A stretch of 64,000 nucleotides of DNA from Pelagomonas calceolata (taxonomy: Eukaryota). Made by a program: the position numbers and the translations under genes. Under the pieces are notes generated by a model. That model did no database searches and was not told the origin of the DNA. It worked only from the letters and a program-made list of their open reading frames with translations. Positions 5-52,460 of this stretch are shown one piece after another (within the stretch, counting starts at the first letter, position 1; every line of letters starts with the position of its first letter). Location: assembly GCA_918797485.1 (NCBI GenBank), contig CAKKNE010000003.1, positions 1,364,001 to 1,428,000 of the forward strand, given 5' to 3'.

Positions 5-3000
5 TTGGGACGAGGCCGGCTGTTCTGTCGCGCGCGCGCGGCCTTTGACGGCGTTTCGTTGGATTCATATGATCGCTCGTTGTTGGCCGTATCTACACAA
101 GTCCCGCCGCGCGTCTTTGCCTGCCGCGACCTGCCGCTCGGAAATGAAACTGAATTTGAGGTCGGCGACCGCGTCCAGGCGCGGTGGAATGGGGAGCCCA
201 CATGGTATGTCGGGACGCTTACGTCCGTAAATCCCTACGCTATTGACTACGACGACGGCGACCACGAGGATGATGTGGACTTGTCATTAATTCGCGCGTC
301 GCGCCTGCCGGACCCGCCCCGGTACCCGACGCCCGATGCCGCGCCGCCGACCTGTTCCACAGTACTAGAGGGGCGCGACGTCGGCGCCCTCTGCGACGTG
401 GCCTGTTTTGCGAACGACGGCGTCTTCGCGGCCAAGGGCGAGGACTGCTGGTGCGGCGAGGCAACTCTAAAATTGCATGGTAAAGTAAAAGCCGTCGCTT
501 CTGCGTCAAAACATGTCGCTTGTGCCTGCAGTGACGGCGCCGTGCGCATCCTCAAGGTGGATACATCTATCATATTGTTACATTCCCTGAGGAACCCCAT
601 CGACAAGGTCCAGTTCTCTTCACCAAGTTTCGGCGCCGGCGGCGAGCATTTGGTAGCAGCGGCGCACGTCGGGTCGCAGGTCCAATTTTACGTGTGGGAG
701 GTCCAGAGCGGCCACTGTCTGGCGCGGCCGCGCGACGACGACAAGGACTCGCAGGACCGCGGGCCAATTCAAGCACTCGCGTGCCACGCGAACGGGGCCG
801 TGATCTGCACGGCGGCCGCGCACGCGTCCCAGCACGCGATCCGCGTCTGGGCGGCGCCCGACGGTTTTAGTTGGCGGGCCTACGCGCCGAACTTTGAAGA
901 ATTACACGAGAACATTACTTATAACGAGCGCGAGGACGAGTTCGACACGACCGTGGATAGCAAGGCCCCGTCGCATCCGCAAGCGGAGATTGAGGCGCTG
1001 CTGGGCGCGCATGGGTGCACTCTAGACGATGTTTTGAGGGTGGAACCGACGGTCTTCGACGCGGCGTCGGGCGAGTGGGTGCCGAACGCGGACGGGACCG
1101 AGGAGCTCGCCTTCGACGATACGTGGTCGGCGCCGGAGCGCGCGCGCTTCCGCCGGGCGCTCGCCGCGCTGCAGGGCGAGGATGAAGCGGAGGCGCCGGC
1201 GGCCGTGGAGGTGGAGGTCGTCGCGGAGGAATCGGAGCTGCTCGACGCCGTCGGCCTCCCGCCGCGGTCGCGGTCGCGGTCGCCCTCGCCCGCGCCGTCC
1301 TGGTCGTCAGAGGAGGACGAGGAGCCGCCCGCGTCGCCGGCGTCGTCGCCGTCGCTGCCGTCGTCGTCGCCGTCGCTGGAGCCGGCCCCGAAGGTGACGC
1401 CGCCCTCGCCGCCGGCCTCGCCGCCGCGGGAGACGACGAAGGCGTCGCCGCTCCGAGTGAAGCAGGTCGCTCGGCAGAGGAAGACCGCGCCGCCGCCTCC
1501 AGCCGTTGGCGGGGTCGCGGCGGCACCCCCACGGCAGAGGAAGGCCGTGCCGCCGCCACCGCCGCCGCCGGCCGTTGTTGAGCTCGCGGCGGCACCGCCG
1601 CTCCATCGTGCCACGCCCGCGGCCGGCGACTGGCGCATCATTGGCGCGCATGTACAAGATTCCGACGATGCGACGGTGCGCGGCGTCGTGACCGATTGCA
1701 CCCACGCTTTCAAGGAAGTAACGACGACGACTGGCTCCGTGGTGATGATGCGACGCTCAAAATTGACGCGAACGACGCTGACGGACGAGGAAGTTGCGCT
1801 CTGCGCGCGCCCAACGTCACTGAAGGACTACGTGCAAGCACGGATTGACGGCACGATACGGGTGAGCCACGGCGAGAACGGTCGAGAATTTAAGAACTGC
1901 TACACGTGCGCGGACGGCACGGAGCGGCGGCAATTCGAGGTCAAGGCTACTCATGTTCGGTGTGCCCTCTGTGGTGATGCGCATACGTGGTCCTTGGAAA
2001 CCGACTCCCTAGTTCTCTTGAATTCTCTCAAGCAGCACTGTGGCCAGACAAAAAGCAATCTCCTCTGTGTGCAGCAGCACCTCGACCGCCTCGACCAGTC
2101 TGTGGGCGCGGGCGCCGAGCAGTCGCTTGAGTCCGACGACGATGACTCGGAGGACGTCCAGTCCGCATGCGCGGAGTCCGAGAATGACGAGTTGGACGAC
2201 GAGTGGGGTGCGGAGCAGCGGCCGACGCGCCGGCACTTGGTCGCCGCGGCGGAGGCGGCGCCCGCTGAGCAGTCAAGCGAGGACGAGGACTTGGCCACAT
2301 TGCGCAAAGCCAAGCCGACGAATAAACCGCGCGACGCGTCGATGGCGCCGGAACCGGTGACCATCAACGCGCACAGCTGGCGCTGCGTCGGAGCGCACAC
2401 CGAGGACGCCAACGATCCGACGGTCCGCGGCATCATCACGAGCTGTCCCAGCACATCAACCCGGGAAGTGACGACGACGACGGGCACCGTTGTCATACTG
2501 AAGACCACTGAGATCATACAGACGACGTTGACGGACGACGAGGTCGCGCGGGCTGTGCGCCCGACATCCATGAAGGACTACGTGCAGGCGCGCATCGACG
2601 GAACCATCGAAACCCGCTGCGGCGGCCGAGACTACAAGAATTGCTACACGGCCGCCGACGGCACGGCGCGGTGCCAGTTCAAAGTAACCGCGACTCACGT
2701 CCAGTGCGCCATCTGCCCGGACGCGCCGACGTGGTCCTTGGATGCCGACTGTGTGAGACTTCTCAAGGAGCACTGTGGCCAAACGGGGGGTAGGGTCAAA
2801 CACGTCCGGAGCCTCGAGGCATCGCTGGCGTCGCGCGCGCTGCCGTCGCCCAAGAAAGCGCCGCCGATGTCGCCCGCGCCGATACCGAAGCGCAAGAAGC
2901 CGTCGCCCCTCGCGACGGAGAAGAAGGCCTCGCCCCTCGCGACGGACCCGCGGAAGCGCGCGAAGCAGCTGTCGGGCGCCGAGGCCGCGCAGGCGCGGGC

Positions 3001-5701
3001 GGAGGCCGTCTGGGCCGGCCTGACCGCGCCGTCCGCGCCGCCGCCGCCGCCAACGTTTCCGCCGTCGCCGCCGCCGCATCCGCCTATCTACTTCGACGTC
3101 TACACGATTGACGGCCTCGGCGGCACGCAGCTCTTCGGGCGCCTGGACCTGTCCGGCGCCGAGCGGCTCACGTTCGGCCGCGACGGGGAGCACGTCGACG
3201 TGCCGCTCGACCACGTGTCCATCTCGCGCCACCACGCGACGATCCGCTTCGAGGGCGACGTGACCTACATCGCGGACATGAAGTCGAACAACGGCACCTT
3301 CGTCGTCACGGCGCCGGGCGAGGCCGATGAGCGCGTCACGACGTCGCGGCTCCGCGAGGGGAGCGTCCTCCGCTTCGGTCTGTCGCCCTACCGCTACGTC
3401 CTCCGGCGCAGCGAGGACGGGCTGCCGCGGCCGGCCGGAGACACGTGGCCGCGGCTGGCCGAGATCGGGTCGAGCGGCGCGAAGCGCGGGGCGCCCATCC
3501 CGAAGAAGCCGGACGCGCCGCCGATCCCGAAGCGGGTGCGGCCCGAGTCGCTCGCGGCCGTGCCGCCGCCGCCGTCACACGACCGGCGCGGCGACTGGCG
3601 CGGGCGGGCGCCGCACGAGGGCGATCGCGATCGCCGCGGGCCGTCGACGAGTCCCCGCGCCAACTTCGGCGAGCGCCTGGCGGACCGCGCGGCGCGCTTC
3701 GGGCCGCCGCCCGGTCCGCCCCCGTTCGAGGCTCGCCTGGCCGACCGGGCGGCGCGCTTTAGCCCTCCGCCGAGTCCCCGCGGCAACTTTGGCGAGAAAA
3801 AAGCGGCCCGCGCGGCGCGCTTCGGGCCTCCGCCCGGCCCGTCTCCCTTCGAGGCGCGCCTGGCGGACCGCGCGGCGCGCTTTAGCCCTCCACCGAGTCC
3901 CCGAGCGGGCGACGCGGGCGGTGGCCACCGCGGGCCGCGCGGGCCGGAAGCGCCACACGGCTTCGGGCCGACGGCACTCAGCGAGGCCTTGAGCCACCGC
4001 CTCAACGCCGACGCGCTGCGTGCGCTCGCCGAGCTCGAGACGGCCGACGCCGACGCAGTCTTGCAGCGGCTCGAGAAGGCCGGCTCGACCGTGCGCAATC
4101 CGTCGACCTGGGTATGCCAGGCGGCCAAAACGCTACTCCGCGCCTACGCTGCCAGGCGGCCGCCTCACCAAAAGCCCCCGGGCCCGCCCCCTAGAAGGAG
4201 AGGCGTCTGCCAGTGGTTCGACCCCGAAAGAAAGCACGGCTTCATCAAGCCCGACGGCGGCGGCGCCGACCTCTTCGTGCACCAGATGGACCTGCGGGCC
4301 GGCACGGAGATCACGGAAGGCGACGCCGTCGAGTTTGGGACCGCGGACTATCAAGGCAGGGAGAAGGCCGTCGACGTCACCAAGGTTGAACGATACGCCG
4401 CCTGGGGGGTGGGGCCTCTTCCGGACGGCGCAAACCCCAGGAAAGTTTCCGTGGGGAATATCATATACGAGGCGAGCGAGTCAGAGATCAAGGCCTTCTT
4501 CGCAGCCGTGGGGGAAATGACCGATGTGCAATATCCACTAGATGCGACCGGCCGCCCCAAAGGCATCTGCTTCATCACGTTTGCGTCTGCCGAAGCTGCG
4601 AGCCGGGCCATCGCCACGATGAATAACGCGGAGTTTGGGGGAAGAAAGCTCCGCGTGGGTTGGCCGCAGTTCGACCGCTGCCAGTTCTCGCACGATGGGC
4701 CTCAGGGTCGCGGTCGCGGCGGCTTCGCGGGAACCGTCCTCGCGAGACACTGCGCCGATGCTCGATCTGCGGCGCCGGGCGACGGCCACCGCGAGCCGCG
4801 CGGGCCGGCACCGCCGCATGATTTCCCGCCACGCCGCTTCGGGCCGACAGCACTCAGCGAGGCCGTGCGTCGCCGCCTCCACGCCGACGCGCTGCGTGCG
4901 CTCGCCGAGCTCGAGACGGCCGACGCCGACGCCGTCGTCCAGCGCCTCACGCAGAAGGGGGCGGAGGTGCTCAACCCGTCGGCCTTTGTGTGCCAGGCGG
5001 TCAAAACGATACTCCGCGACAGGCGTGACGGCTTTGCGCGGCCGGGCGTTGTGCCGCCTCTTCCGGACGGCGCGAACCCCAGGAAAGTCCGCGTGAAGAA
5101 TATCACCTTTACTGCGAGTGAGCCAGAGATCAAAGCCTTCTTCGCAGCCGCGGGGGAAATGACCGATGTGCAATTGTGCAGAGGCCACTGCTTCATCACG
5201 TTCGCGTCTGCGGAAGCCGCGAGCCGGGCCATCGCCACGATGAATAACGCGGAGTTCCAGGGAAGAAAGCTCCGCGTGGGTTGGCCGGTATTCGACCGCT
5301 GCCGCGGAGGCTTCGCGGGAGCCGACATCGCGAGACACTGTGCCGATGGTCGATCTACGGCGGCGGGCGGGCGGGAACCACCGCGCGTCCCGCTCGACAG
5401 CCTCCAGCGCCTACCGCCGCCGAGCGCGCGGGGCAACATGGCGCCGCGGCCCGACTATCCCCGACCGGACCAGCGCCGCGGTCTGGGCCCCGACGAGTGG
5501 ATTTGTGGTGCTTGCGGCGGCGACAACTTCGCCCGGCGCCGTGAGTGTCGCCGGTGCGGCACGCCCAAGTCGTCGGGCGAGCACTGGGAAACCAACTACG
5601 GGTTTCAAGTCCCGCGGCCGACGCCGCCGCGCCGCCGCAGCAGCAGCCGGTCGCGGTCGCGGTCGCGCGAGCGGCGCGGCCGGCGCGGCCGTCGTTCCTA
5701 A
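5..5701 (+). CDS. Large multidomain ORF, probably 5'-partial: RBBP5/Swd1-like WD40 with Tudor-like insert, duplicated Cys/His domain, FHA, cold-shock domain, 2 RRMs, RanBP2 zinc finger and RS tail; could be two genes
   Basis: WRAYAPNFEELHENITYNEREDEFD resembles the RBBP5 post-WD40 motif; FEVGDRVQARW..YAIDYDDGD (Tudor); FGR..SISRHHA..DMKSNNGTF (FHA); WFDPERKHGFI..DLFVH (CSD); KGICFITF (RNP1); WICGACGGDNFARRRECRRC (zf-RanBP2). Confidence 0.7.
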   Translation: MGRGRLFCRARAAFDGVSLDSYDRSLLAVSTQVPPRVFACRDLPLGNETEFEVGDRVQARWNGEPTWYVGTLTSVNPYAIDYDDGDHEDDVDLSLIRASRLPDPPRYPTPDAAPPTCSTVLEGRDVGALCDVACFANDGVFAAKGEDCWCGEATLKLHGKVKAVASASKHVACACSDGAVRILKVDTSIILLHSLRNPIDKVQFSSPSFGAGGEHLVAAAHVGSQVQFYVWEVQSGHCLARPRDDDKDSQDRGPIQALACHANGAVICTAAAHASQHAIRVWAAPDGFSWRAYAPNFEELHENITYNEREDEFDTTVDSKAPSHPQAEIEALLGAHGCTLDDVLRVEPTVFDAASGEWVPNADGTEELAFDDTWSAPERARFRRALAALQGEDEAEAPAAVEVEVVAEESELLDAVGLPPRSRSRSPSPAPSWSSEEDEEPPASPASSPSLPSSSPSLEPAPKVTPPSPPASPPRETTKASPLRVKQVARQRKTAPPPPAVGGVAAAPPRQRKAVPPPPPPPAVVELAAAPPLHRATPAAGDWRIIGAHVQDSDDATVRGVVTDCTHAFKEVTTTTGSVVMMRRSKLTRTTLTDEEVALCARPTSLKDYVQARIDGTIRVSHGENGREFKNCYTCADGTERRQFEVKATHVRCALCGDAHTWSLETDSLVLLNSLKQHCGQTKSNLLCVQQHLDRLDQSVGAGAEQSLESDDDDSEDVQSACAESENDELDDEWGAEQRPTRRHLVAAAEAAPAEQSSEDEDLATLRKAKPTNKPRDASMAPEPVTINAHSWRCVGAHTEDANDPTVRGIITSCPSTSTREVTTTTGTVVILKTTEIIQTTLTDDEVARAVRPTSMKDYVQARIDGTIETRCGGRDYKNCYTAADGTARCQFKVTATHVQCAICPDAPTWSLDADCVRLLKEHCGQTGGRVKHVRSLEASLASRALPSPKKAPPMSPAPIPKRKKPSPLATEKKASPLATDPRKRAKQLSGAEAAQARAEAVWAGLTAPSAPPPPPTFPPSPPPHPPIYFDVYTIDGLGGTQLFGRLDLSGAERLTFGRDGEHVDVPLDHVSISRHHATIRFEGDVTYIADMKSNNGTFVVTAPGEADERVTTSRLREGSVLRFGLSPYRYVLRRSEDGLPRPAGDTWPRLAEIGSSGAKRGAPIPKKPDAPPIPKRVRPESLAAVPPPPSHDRRGDWRGRAPHEGDRDRRGPSTSPRANFGERLADRAARFGPPPGPPPFEARLADRAARFSPPPSPRGNFGEKKAARAARFGPPPGPSPFEARLADRAARFSPPPSPRAGDAGGGHRGPRGPEAPHGFGPTALSEALSHRLNADALRALAELETADADAVLQRLEKAGSTVRNPSTWVCQAAKTLLRAYAARRPPHQKPPGPPPRRRGVCQWFDPERKHGFIKPDGGGADLFVHQMDLRAGTEITEGDAVEFGTADYQGREKAVDVTKVERYAAWGVGPLPDGANPRKVSVGNIIYEASESEIKAFFAAVGEMTDVQYPLDATGRPKGICFITFASAEAASRAIATMNNAEFGGRKLRVGWPQFDRCQFSHDGPQGRGRGGFAGTVLARHCADARSAAPGDGHREPRGPAPPHDFPPRRFGPTALSEAVRRRLHADALRALAELETADADAVVQRLTQKGAEVLNPSAFVCQAVKTILRDRRDGFARPGVVPPLPDGANPRKVRVKNITFTASEPEIKAFFAAAGEMTDVQLCRGHCFITFASAEAASRAIATMNNAEFQGRKLRVGWPVFDRCRGGFAGADIARHCADGRSTAAGGREPPRVPLDSLQRLPPPSARGNMAPRPDYPRPDQRRGLGPDEWICGACGGDNFARRRECRRCGTPKSSGEHWETNYGFQVPRPTPPRRRSSSRSRSRSRERRGRRGRRS

Positions 5702-14313: not shown

Positions 14314-14758
14314 AACGCGGCCGCGGGAACCGCCGGCGGGCCGGGCGCCTCTCCGGGCAGCCGCGCAGGCGCGTGGGGCAGCGCGCTCCCCAGCACCAAG
14401 CTTCGCGTTAGCACAGAGTCCGCCGAACCCGCACGGTTAGGAGGCAGTATGTTGCTCCAGAATCGTCCCGAGATGGGCAGAAACGGAGCCATCGGGGAGA
14501 ATCGCGATAGCTCCAATGACTCTAGTGGCTTTGTGCGCTAGCTCGTCCATCTCCCGCGCGACAAGCGCAAGGCCATAGCGTTGGCATCTCTGCTTGAGGG
14601 AGGCTAAATCACACTGATCGATTGCGTTTTGCAAAACGCACCAAATTTTGCGAAGTTTGCTGCCAGCACCAGCTGAAACTAGTTGGTCACAGGCTTTTTG
14701 CAGCCACCACTGCACACAAATGTGCTGCGCAGCGATGCAAAGCAGCTAGCATTTGCCG

Positions 14759-35429: not shown

Positions 35430-35810
35430 GACCCAGCACTGAAGCGTGGGCTTTTCCGCGCTGGGGTTTCGCGACAATTACGATACGTGGGTTCAAAATC
35501 ACAGCTGTGCGCGTGCAGCACTGTCACGGCAGGCGGATGGCTCGAGCGACCCGGCAATATTAGCTAGCGGTCAGTAAGACACTAGGAAGTAGCAAAACTG
35601 TGAGCTATTTCAAGCCTATTTGTCGTCTCGCGGCTTAAAAGTGCTAGAAAATATACGTTGACGAACGAGGCAAGCAGGTCTGCGCACTCCTGCTTCCGCC
35701 GTGAACCGGAGAGCTTCATCAAGGGCCCAGCCAGGTTTGCGGCTGCCACACGCGTGCGCGAGCGCACGCCTTCGACGCGGCTCCTAAAGGCTGGTGTTCC
35801 GCACTGTTGC

Positions 35811-41634: not shown

Positions 41635-41657
41635 GCTAGCGTCCTGTAAGACACTAG
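41635..41657 (+). promoter_or_regulatory. Representative copy of the bipartite intergenic motif GCTAGCG-N2-4-GTAAGACACTAG
   Basis: Related copies at 14522, 23963, 25190, 30353, 35563, 36818, 39406, 44269, 47817, 56648 and 62722, all intergenic and upstream of gene starts. Confidence 0.7.
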
Positions 41658-49182: not shown

Positions 49183-50571
49183 CTAGTTGAACTCCGGGCG
49201 CCCTCGAGCATCGTCTACATTGATTTCATCTTGCATGGTTCTGGCCACATCATGATCAGCATCGGGCTCAGGGGGCGCGCCGCCGTCGGCCGTGGACTCG
49301 GAGTCCGAGTGCTCGGAGTCGTACACTAACCCCTCGAGCTTCTCCGTAAGCGGGTGATCTTCGCCGAAGGTCTGGCGCGCCGCCTCATAGGCTGCGTCCG
49401 CCACCTCTCCCGCCTCGCGCAGGTCGGCTTCGTCGGCATCCTCGTCGAAAAATATGGATCTCGCATAGTTCCCGCGCCACGAAAACGAGTACTCGTGGTA
49501 CTTGGAGTTGGGCCCGAGTACGCGTTGTGCGTCGGCCATATTCGCCCGCAGCAACGACCTTGCCTCGCGGAGCATTGCCCCACTCGTCGGCTCGCGTTCG
49601 ATCAACGCGGTACACAAGTTGAGGATTGAGATAAGCTTATCTTCTGCGCAGGTCTGCGCGACGATGGGCGTAAAAACTCCGCGCATTCCGTCCTCTCTGA
49701 ACATGAATTCCTTTCCCGCAAGAACCCTGCGGTGGCGGCTAATGGCCTCGTCCTGCCGCCCAAGGAGCATCAAGGTGTTTGCAATGTTGGTCTGAAGAGC
49801 CATGCAACTTTGTGCGAGGTCAAACGAGATTGCCGGGCGATCTGTGAGAAGACTAGGGTTGTGGTGATTAACTATGGCTAAGGAAGCCCCGTAAATGTCG
49901 AGCGCTTCTTGATGAAAACCATTTTCAGCTAAGCTGCCCGCGAGCATATCCATGGCGGCTCGGCGAACGAAGTGATCTGCCGGCTGCTTACTAAGATGTG
50001 CCCGCCAGCACGCCCAGCCCATGGCGCGTTGCACGTCTCCGTGGTATCGCTTCCCACAAAGCCGGCACGACTCCCATAGGCGGAATCTATCTTGGGTCGA
50101 CGCCCACGACCTCGACATCTCGTCATCCATTGCCACTTCCGCTTGGCGCACCAGGCATGAGACGTGCGCGACGCCCATCGCCCCGGCATCGACGCCATCG
50201 CGGTCTCCACACGCGCAGAATCCGTTAACTAAGCCCTCTCCCGTGCGTTGCACGACAGCTTCCGTGCAGATGTAGCACGTCGCGCCCTCCGGAACGTATC
50301 CCGTAGCCTGGGCGACGAGCGCGCCGTGGAAGGCGCATTTTTCGACGGCCTCCGCGACGGCCTCGTCGTATTTTTGGTTCGCGTGAAACTTCTCAGCGCC
50401 GCCGGCGCGCTTGATGCGCTTGCACAGGGGCCGATTGTGACCGCCCGTGTTCCAGTGCTGCGTCTGGCACGCCTGCCCGCAGTAGCGCGTGTGGCACTTG
50501 CTGCATCGCGGGGCAGTGTATGGAATGGGAACAGCGCACGCGGCGCAGGTCGTGAGGATTCCTGGGGTCAT
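49183..50571 (-). CDS. MYND zinc finger + RING-CH + TPR protein (divergent paralogue of 15485-16645)
   Basis: ILTTCAAC..CSKC.TRYCG.ACQ.QHW..GGH..CKRIKRAGGAEKFHAN; CYIC..CAC..AHVSC..CRLC; GWACW; DLREA..FGEDHPLT. Confidence 0.85.
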   Translation of the reverse strand: MTPGILTTCAACAVPIPYTAPRCSKCHTRYCGQACQTQHWNTGGHNRPLCKRIKRAGGAEKFHANQKYDEAVAEAVEKCAFHGALVAQATGYVPEGATCYICTEAVVQRTGEGLVNGFCACGDRDGVDAGAMGVAHVSCLVRQAEVAMDDEMSRSWASTQDRFRLWESCRLCGKRYHGDVQRAMGWACWRAHLSKQPADHFVRRAAMDMLAGSLAENGFHQEALDIYGASLAIVNHHNPSLLTDRPAISFDLAQSCMALQTNIANTLMLLGRQDEAISRHRRVLAGKEFMFREDGMRGVFTPIVAQTCAEDKLISILNLCTALIEREPTSGAMLREARSLLRANMADAQRVLGPNSKYHEYSFSWRGNYARSIFFDEDADEADLREAGEVADAAYEAARQTFGEDHPLTEKLEGLVYDSEHSDSESTADGGAPPEPDADHDVARTMQDEINVDDARGRPEFN

Positions 50572-50676
50572 TATATTGATGGATAAGGCAGCCTAAAAAC
50601 CGTCTCTAGGACCCCAGAAAAAGCGCCGAAGCCGAGAGCTAGCGGCCTGTAAGTATGGGCGGCAAAACCCACACGC

Positions 50677-50780
50677 AAAACTGGAAACTGAAAACTGGAA
50701 ACTGAAAACTGGAAACTCGGAGAACTCGTCAAACTGGAATCTCGAAACTGGGTAAACTGGGCGAACTGGGCGAACTGGGC
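50677..50780. repeat. Tandem AAACTG-core repeats
   Basis: (AAAACTGGAAACTG) about x3, followed by degenerate AAACTGG/GAACTGGGC units. Confidence 0.9.
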
Positions 50781-51115
50781 TACGGTCGCGCGTCGCGGTG
50801 CCGCGGGGACGGCGCGGTCGTTGTACGCGTAGCCTACCCTCCCGCGTCTTAGTCGCAGACTTAGAGAAACAAATTACTACATACACTCTTTCATTGGCTC
50901 AGGTTAGCTGGTTGTGGTAGCATTAGGCTTCGCCGGCTGCCCGTCGGTAGCCGCCGCCCCACTCTGCTTTTGACTTGTGATGGGCACAACCAGAGCGTCG
51001 ATACGATACGATTTTCGATACGATACGATTTTTGTGGTGTTTTTTTTTTTTGGGGGGGGGGGAGGGGAGGATTCGAGGGGGGGGGGGACACTAAGGGGGT
51101 TCACGTGAATCACGT

Positions 51116-51469
51116 CTAAGGCGGGCGGTCATCTTCAGATTCACAGTACCGCTCGGCCCAGACCGCAGCCAACACAGGCGGGAGCCGCCGCTTGAGTTTC
51201 GCTGCATGCATGGCCACGCGTTTATAGATCTCGTTCTCTAGATTTCTTCCGTACAATTCGATGCCCGAGACGTCGACCTCGTAGGATGCTGCCCGGTCCC
51301 GCGCGTGTTGCAACCGGTTATACCCGCGCACGGCTACGAACGAACCCTTGATTTCCTCGAGCATGTCATCGTAATCACCATCATACGGTTCATACTCGCC
51401 CAACCTCAAATCTAGGTTTATATCGGAGTTCGGGTTGATTTCCTTGTCCAATTCGAATATCTTGTACAT
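51116..51469 (-). CDS. 117-aa acidic ORF of unknown function inside the insertion; may be a 5'-truncated fragment
   Basis: MYKIFELDKEINPNSD...EDDRPP; visibly lower GC than host genes; frame stays open up to the insertion junction. Confidence 0.4.
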   Translation of the reverse strand: MYKIFELDKEINPNSDINLDLRLGEYEPYDGDYDDMLEEIKGSFVAVRGYNRLQHARDRAASYEVDVSGIELYGRNLENEIYKRVAMHAAKLKRRLPPVLAAVWAERYCESEDDRPP

Positions 51470-51572
51470 AATGATCTGGTCTGGTAAGACACTAGCAATC
51501 ACGCCAGCTGCGCATGCTGCCCAACAATCAAATTCGCACGGCCCAACTCCCCACCGCACGCGCAAAGCACCG

Positions 51573-52460
51573 ATGCGCCACGCCTGGCTGCTCCTGGCAG
51601 CCAGCACCCATGCTCTCATAAAATTAGAGAACAAGACCCACGGCGCATTCATCGAACAGTACACAGTAACACTGCTCAAAGTGTGCGCCGAGCGATGCGC
51701 GAGCGACGCCGCGCTCGACGCGATCGACATCGAGGGCGTGGGCGTCGCCGCGGCGACGCGCGACATCGACGCCGTGCGCGAGTTTGATGCGGAGTTCCTG
51801 CTCGTGTATGGCCCCCAAATCAAAGGTCAGACCTCGAACGTGTCGACGACAATCCAAGGGCGACGGTGGGACGTCTACCTTGGAGGTAGGGCGTACGACG
51901 ATATGGTATGGTGGCTGAGGAGACTCGTACAAGGGAGGGACCCCGTACAAGATGAGCGGCTGGGGTTCCGGCCGGGCCTCTTCAGCGCTTATGATGCGTG
52001 GGGCGAGTGGTCGCTGCGCCTGGGATATCAAAAAAATGACCCTCCGGTGTACGAGCTCGACGGCGGCGCGTTGGAAGCGATCGCCAACGGCGCCGACGAC
52101 CGGCTCTGGGTCGTCTTCTTCTACTCTGATCGAAGTAAGCGCGACCGCGCCGCCAAGGCGTCCGTATTGAGACTGGCGGCGCAATTTAGAGAAAAGCACG
52201 GGACGGCCGTCGCCGTCGGAGCGCACAACGCGCGCGTCTGGCCCGAACGCGCGCGGCAACACGGCCGCGTCGTCGTGTCCGACGGTGGCCCGAAGCTGGC
52301 CTTCGCCTGCCTCCAGAAAGGTAAGTGGCTCAACGGCGCCATGAGCCTGCCCCGAGATTTGGAAAGCGCCATCTACGGCTGGGCCGCGCGGCTCGCCGTG
52401 GGGGGGCTGCCTGACACCGAGTTGACGACGCGGCTCGGGCCGAACGGCGAGGAGTTCTAG
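51573..52460 (+). CDS. Secretory-pathway protein with a thioredoxin-like fold region (no CxxC)
   Basis: Signal peptide MRHAWLLLAASTHA; VYELDGGALE..LWVVFFYS; ER-retention-like end EEF. Confidence 0.55.
   Translation: MRHAWLLLAASTHALIKLENKTHGAFIEQYTVTLLKVCAERCASDAALDAIDIEGVGVAAATRDIDAVREFDAEFLLVYGPQIKGQTSNVSTTIQGRRWDVYLGGRAYDDMVWWLRRLVQGRDPVQDERLGFRPGLFSAYDAWGEWSLRLGYQKNDPPVYELDGGALEAIANGADDRLWVVFFYSDRSKRDRAAKASVLRLAAQFREKHGTAVAVGAHNARVWPERARQHGRVVVSDGGPKLAFACLQKGKWLNGAMSLPRDLESAIYGWAARLAVGGLPDTELTTRLGPNGEEF

Follow-up and report, generated by a model that had tools for sequence, protein, structure and literature searches.

Eukaryotic IS3EU elements have TA..TA termini and, in their fungal families, ends of the form TAYGG..CCRTA with TIRs of more than 30 bp (accessible portions of PMC10045372 and PMC12730594), and a 5-bp target duplication is given as a feature of hAT5 in the available text of the second source. 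Among elements of stramenopiles, the CryptonS group is described as having 5-6-bp direct repeats and mostly TATGG termini, Cryptons being without TIRs (PMC3212892, in the part available). Dada comprises target-specific, TIR-less DDE elements for which one-ended events have been proposed (accessible text of PMC3706591). Abortive gap repair is the standard explanation for internal deletions (PMC4161770), and maize has elements that provide one end only (PMC8225341), both according to the available sections of these papers; the one-ended Helitrons treated in the accessible part of PMC3627910 have no direct bearing here. Pelagomonas itself is described as repeat-poor, with ~6% repeats that are mostly unclassified (available text of bioRxiv 10.1101/2024.10.30.620910).

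The insertion described here lies in a 64,000-nucleotide stretch of the Pelagomonas calceolata genome (contig CAKKNE010000003.1, positions 1,364,001 to 1,428,000), hereafter the window, which consists of gene-dense eukaryotic DNA (GC ~64%) with genes that include VPS4, IML1, DBR1 and RRP7. It comprises 830 bp (50654-51483; GC 0.54) between copies of GTAAG at 50649-50653 and 51484-51488, exactly as delimited in an earlier sequence-only reading, which had described a mobile element without TIRs in the middle of a recurrent intergenic motif. When the two motif halves are rejoined they differ by one mismatch from the motif copy at 41635, again in agreement with that reading, and by two from the copy at 35563; the chance of the GTAAG 5-mer at one fixed position is ~6e-4. 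The insert is best explained as what remains, with one end only, of a non-autonomous TIR transposon from a new family. That it is the remnant of a TIR transposon is very highly probable, while the fuller reading, in which it is the left arm of a non-autonomous TIR transposon in a promoter motif and its right arm was likely lost after insertion, is one that we consider distinctly probable. The features of the locus are collected in Table 1.

Table 1. Features of the insertion and its flanks (positions in the window)
Feature	Position	Strand	Remarks
Left host gene (MYND finger and TPR)	49183..50571	-	Motif lies upstream
Left half of the recurrent CTAG..GTAAGACA..CTAG intergenic motif	50638..50653	+	Ends in the left GTAAG (50649-50653)
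Left TIR, 74 bp, TATGG start	50654..50727	+	2 mismatches to the L002 right end, reverse complement
Left arm, 291 bp, with AAACTGG repeats at ~50671-50780	50654..50944	+	93% identity to L002:2632-2912
Internal segment with a diverged counterpart at a third locus	50889..50998	+	Crosses 50944, the point of departure from L002
Low-complexity internal DNA with a doubled 17-mer, a T12 run and two G11 runs	50998..51087	+	
117-aa orphan ORF	51116..51469	-	Frame open to the right junction; 0 RNA reads
Right GTAAG (51484-51488) and right motif half	51484..51495	+	No right TIR before it
Right host gene, 295 aa	51573..52460	+	RNA coverage from ~51500-51531

Scanning metagenome contigs for a 23-nt TIR pattern gave three loci (L001, L002 and L003). 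L002, on a Pelagomonas-like metagenome contig, holds a 414-bp element (2632-3045) that starts with TATGG, finishes with CCATA, has 74-bp TIRs with three mismatches and is flanked on each side by the 5-bp duplication CCAGC. Its segment 2632-2912 is 93% identical to window positions 50654-50944 over 291 bp, and L002 also matches the window element in inverted orientation over 74 bp, the first 74 bp of the window element showing two mismatches to the reverse complement of the L002 right end. The window copy starts precisely where the TIR starts and contains 539 bp more internal DNA than the 291 bp that match L002; a counterpart of the L002 right arm (2913-3045) was sought in the insert and none was found (best local score 16). 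The claim that the element has no TIRs thus stands for the window copy as a pair but not for the family, in which L002 has TIRs of 74 bp and the window copy keeps the left one. Because L002 possesses TIRs and its own 5-bp duplication, the window copy can be recognized as the left arm of a TIR DNA transposon. At the two sites the duplications agree in length and differ in sequence (GTAAG in the window, CCAGC at L002; n=2). The AAACTGG repeats of the arm are likely, as a prediction, to be transposase-binding sites.

The L002 element is located downstream of a PDCD5 gene, and CTAG is absent both from the ~430 bp next to its left end and from the 52 bp available on its right. The neighbouring gene, DNAAF3, encodes a protein that clusters with its P. 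calceolata counterpart and is 92% identical to it. Between L002 and P. calceolata the arm is 93% identical in DNA and DNAAF3 92% identical in amino acids, a contrast that may reflect recent activity or exchange between lineages. L001 and L003 were rejected as family copies, being bacterial-looking repeats with only 29-30 bp matching; in both (L001:2975-3029 and L003:1467-1521) the similarity resides in an intergenic inverted array of an AAACTGG-type repeat, and is probably convergent low-complexity sequence. No match of at least 25 bp to the insert was found in any of the viral loci that fit the TIR pattern (20 of 20) or in the 120 prokaryote loci among the matches listed. Within the window there is no second copy of the insert, the best other match being 43 bp at 81% in GC-rich sequence.

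With respect to described superfamilies, L002 resembles IS3EU/GingerRoot in its TATGG..CCATA termini and 74-bp TIRs. IS3EU duplications, however, are usually 6 bp according to the available descriptions, and those observed here are 5 bp at both sites. In this property the window and L002 sites are like those of hAT5. Short subterminal repeats and YA..TR ends are hAT-like as well, and a 74-bp TIR is long for hAT. Unlike the present elements, hAT5 is placed among animal hAT families (PMC12730594, accessible text). A survey of public contigs and reads identified neither a transposase nor a full-length parent, and, as there is no transposase to classify, we do not file the family under any superfamily. 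In its construction, which looks like a left arm fused to a right arm, L002 is similar to the Ds-like internal-deletion derivatives of maize (available part of PMC4161770), and the window copy, which keeps one end, recalls fractured Ac (fAc), which supplies a single end (PMC8225341, likewise in part). Ds and fAc differ from the elements described here in family and in host, and at the window site both copies of the target duplication survive. Dada offers a parallel for a DNA transposon with a short duplication whose site is a motif that the host repeats. The accessible account gives Dada no TIRs, duplications of 6-7 bp and small RNA genes as targets; the present family differs in its TIRs, and at least one of its copies lies away from the motif.

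The insert was present in all four DNA runs (X1-X4), in each of which contigs span the left and the right junction, and is thus no assembly artefact. An empty-site allele, for which the sequence-only reading had pointed to the reads, did not emerge from them: none of the four DNA runs contained a joint that skips the insert. A heterozygous empty allele was considered, as insert depth is below that of the flank in some contigs, and was rejected on the same ground (4/4 runs); it should be emphasized that contigs show the presence, not the absence, of an allele. Homologues of the right host gene, in contrast, do appear to preserve the empty site. The 32 close homologues examined are the listed members of clusters of 99, 24 and 2, and six of them, which are metagenomic, contain upstream read-through. 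The motif is crossed unbroken in five of these six, the sixth beginning too late to cover it, and the peptides that cross it read ELAACKTL, ELAAYKTL, ELAACKDT (in two proteins with identical N-termini) and VLAAWKTL. In the frame of the right gene the left flank in the window ends in ELAACK and the right flank begins with TLAITP, as expected if the empty site contained one GTAAG. Two of the five, P0088 and P0082, show a further match to the antisense strand of the start of the MYND gene (E 1.4e-8 and 2.5e-7, respectively), indicating that the two-gene arrangement exists without the insert. At the level of translated protein, rather than DNA, an empty site therefore appears to exist. Together with the intact L002 element elsewhere, bearing its own 5-bp duplication, the empty site in the homologues bears out the proposal of a mobile element with a 5-bp duplication.

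RNA data came from one run (X21), of which ~6% was read and 525 reads were placed. Depth was 0 over 50688-51480, 9-17 at 50505-50626 in the left gene and 34-74 from 51542 in the right gene, five molecules ending at 51531. This pattern indicates that the 117-aa ORF was silent in X21 and that transcription of the two host genes proceeds away from the split motif on either side. The insert was earlier said to split a putative divergent promoter; it does so, but both flanking genes are still transcribed in this run. The locus thus provides a natural experiment in which the motif halves lie 830 bp apart and neither divergent gene is off, a statement that concerns the presence of transcripts, not their levels, in one RNA run. 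An intron was considered as an explanation of the insert, the left junction (50649-50659) giving a consensus 5' splice site, GTAAGT, on the + strand. It was ruled out, as X21 contained no joint or spliced read across the insert and the transcripts start outside it. With respect to the flanking genes themselves, the MYND and adjacent region (50250-50500) has many paralogues, with contig depth up to ~28x single copy. The right gene, called thioredoxin-like in the sequence-only reading, a putative assignment, matched no Pfam family and no PHROG family; its homologues form nine clusters, and its first 30 residues are highly variable among homologues that are otherwise 90% identical.

The internal features listed in the sequence-only reading, namely the AAACTGG repeats, a doubled 17-mer (50998-51031), T12 and G11 runs and a 117-aa ORF (51116-51469, minus strand), are all present. 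The ORF may represent the 3' portion of a longer gene that the right junction truncates. Its product matched 0 Pfam families, and a protein search returned two matches, the ORF itself and P0002 (92% over 55% of the query); the P0002 identity of 92% covers the last 64 residues, and the N-terminus differs. There was no match to longer proteins, and a search of 1.84 billion representatives returned the same two matches only. A structure model had a pLDDT of 0.50, with a best TM of 0.42 and no usable Atlas match. A PHROG match (E 0.068) was dismissed, and two viral loci were set aside as chance, the match being 34 aa within an unrelated 944-aa ORF. The GC3 of the ORF, 0.67, is at the low end of eight host genes (0.66-0.82). 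An Rfam scan gave one weak match, below threshold and outside the insert.

Evidence for other copies in the same organism comes from X1, X2 and X3, in each of which a second contig with a different flank reaches into the TIR and stops after its first 30 bp. A second contig likewise shares 50763-50792 and then departs. This second copy, hereafter copy 2, shares element positions 1-139 before it diverges. Its records derive from X1-X3, depth in X4 being only 3-7 there, and its two sides were joined by elimination from loose ends of 24-30 letters, not read from one contig. By arithmetic on the records listed, two single-copy contigs, both apparently left ends, explain the depth at the TIR start in X1-X3, and among these records there is no near-identical right TIR. 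From these depths we infer that X1-X3 contain two left ends but neither a near-identical right TIR nor an insertion of the L002 type. The outer flank of copy 2 ends in CTAG followed by ACTGT, and the 24 letters past its departure point hold CTTAC-N4-CTAG, a pattern that, as CTTAC-N4-6-CTAG, occurs six times in the window on both strands. These flanks seem to fit the two halves of a reversed motif, in which the TIR would abut the GTAAG/ACA bond as it does in the window. A counterpart of part of the internal DNA is also present at a third locus, where a piece corresponding to 50889-50963/50972 was found in 4/4 DNA runs with three substitutions and seven gap letters; the likeness extends to ~50998, as judged by eye on a loose end. 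The fact that this segment crosses the L002 breakpoint suggests that the extra DNA came from a longer form of the element or from host capture.

The motif into which the element inserted occurs well above chance. In the window there are 12 CTAG pairs with a spacing of 16-18, against 0.88 expected (P=2e-10), and 11 of the 12 lie outside long ORFs. Copies of CTAG-N4-6-GTAAGACA-N0-2-CTAG and its variants are intergenic at 14522, 23964, 25190, 30353, 35564, 36818, 39407, 41636, 44269, 56649 and 62722, mostly 70-250 bp from ORF edges. At the split copy RNA begins just beyond each half. The motif is likely a bidirectional core-promoter element, and by a rough estimate it covers ~2% of noncoding DNA.

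How a left arm came to be bounded on both sides by an intact duplication can be envisaged in two steps. A DDE transposase acting in trans would have inserted a longer, two-ended copy through a 5-nt staggered cut, and the right arm would then have been removed with the right flank left intact. Removal could have followed from transposase cleavage at the element end and one-sided (abortive) gap repair, or from deletion between an internal GTAAG and the GTAAG of the duplicated flank; either route would keep the 5-bp duplication intact. The sole GTAAG in the L002 element is at 2911, the exact point at which it departs from the window copy, so a microhomology route for the deletion is possible. It could be argued against this route that GTAAG would be found at the L002 junction by chance in ~1 in 64 cases given the shared GT. 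Loss of the right arm after insertion is, taken by itself, on balance likely, the comparison being with the one known intact relative, L002. Random deletion, however, rarely stops exactly at a duplication, and copy 2 also seems to be without a right end while its flank is nearly intact, which hints at a systematic one-ended process. The main rival to the loss of a right arm is such a process, in which a motif-preferring transposase would have used a cryptic end as the partner of the left TIR and integrated the left arm together with adjacent DNA. One-ended transposition would produce in one step a duplication that is perfect at an end without TIR likeness, and the flanks of copy 2, which is apparently one-ended, fit reversed motif halves. 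The sides of copy 2 are, however, linked by elimination only, its duplication would match at just three of five letters, the right ends differ between it and the window copy, and L002 is both two-ended and off the motif. We consider one-ended transposition unlikely. Any preference for the motif must also be set against the fact that the window copy was chosen for its motif; of the two unselected copies one is in the motif (P ~0.04, a rough noncoding estimate). In a compact genome, moreover, surviving insertions are skewed to open intergenic DNA. The suggestion that the element strictly targets the motif is refuted because L002 lies outside it, at most two of three known copies being in the motif, whereas the apparent abutment of copy 2 on the same motif leaves room for a looser preference. 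It is doubtful that an undescribed pelagophyte family with IS3EU-type ends and 5-bp duplications prefers the core of a genome-wide bidirectional promoter motif and is repeatedly one-ended there. Equally tentative is the corollary that the TIRs of the window copy and copy 2 would have come to lie at one and the same GTAAG/ACA bond, one on either side of it.

Explanations that dispense with a TIR transposase on site fare less well. The insert might be a patch, copied from a distant transposon remnant into a staggered break in open promoter DNA. The diverged counterpart of part of the internal DNA at the third locus accords with such repair, as does a right end with no TIR, but repair explains neither the start of the insert at the exact first base of the TIR nor a duplication of the same length as that of L002, and we regard this capture as quite improbable. 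The proposal of a 5'-truncated retroelement, in which the minus strand would read first the ORF and then a repeat-rich 3' tail, accords with the order of a minus-strand ORF, C runs and an A12 run and with a frame that is open to the junction. L002 largely refutes it: the supposed tail is a TIR with subterminal repeats, found at both L002 ends, and the A run lies ~390 bp inside the end. Family, protein and structure searches with the 117-aa ORF revealed no RT or endonuclease likeness, and a retroelement is thus very improbable. The same low standing applies to a tyrosine-recombinase integrant, CryptonS-like, arising by crossover in the motif spacer. The stramenopile host, the TATGG terminus, the 5-bp direct repeat and the inverted CTAG arms of the motif all recall such elements. 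Cryptons, however, lack TIRs and use a tyrosine recombinase (PMC3212892, in the part available), and the L002 family has TIRs of 74 bp. The repeated pentamer, moreover, varies by site (GTAAG or CCAGC) and there is no motif at the L002 site; a different pentamer at an unrelated site is the product of a DDE-type transposase, not of crossover in a fixed core. Under the transposon reading that we favour, the window copy is probably an immobile, dead relic.

A published description of this transposon family was not found in titles and the starts of abstracts, and supplements or Repbase could list it as an unclassified repeat. The locus thus adds a new small transposon family to an abundant, repeat-poor alga. 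If the preference for the promoter core is true, the family would be a case of a short promoter motif guiding a DNA transposon in a eukaryote, would point to a motif-binding factor and could become an insertion tool for pelagophytes. Titles and abstract starts on pelagophyte promoter motifs yielded no description of the motif, and the word 'motif' is absent from the accessible main texts of PMC9481584 and 10.1101/2024.10.30.620910. In folding predictions the motif copy at 41636 forms a hairpin (z -2.8), and the element ends fold no better than shuffles (z 0.09 and -0.32). A second single-copy locus, seen in X1-X3 and comparable to window positions 51484-51605, carries the same motif in intact form and a similar signal-peptide start, followed by a different gene body. 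There are 113 letters between motif and start at that locus, compared with 79 here (joint 51504-51584). A promoter-plus-leader cassette is reused by this second gene at the other single-copy locus.
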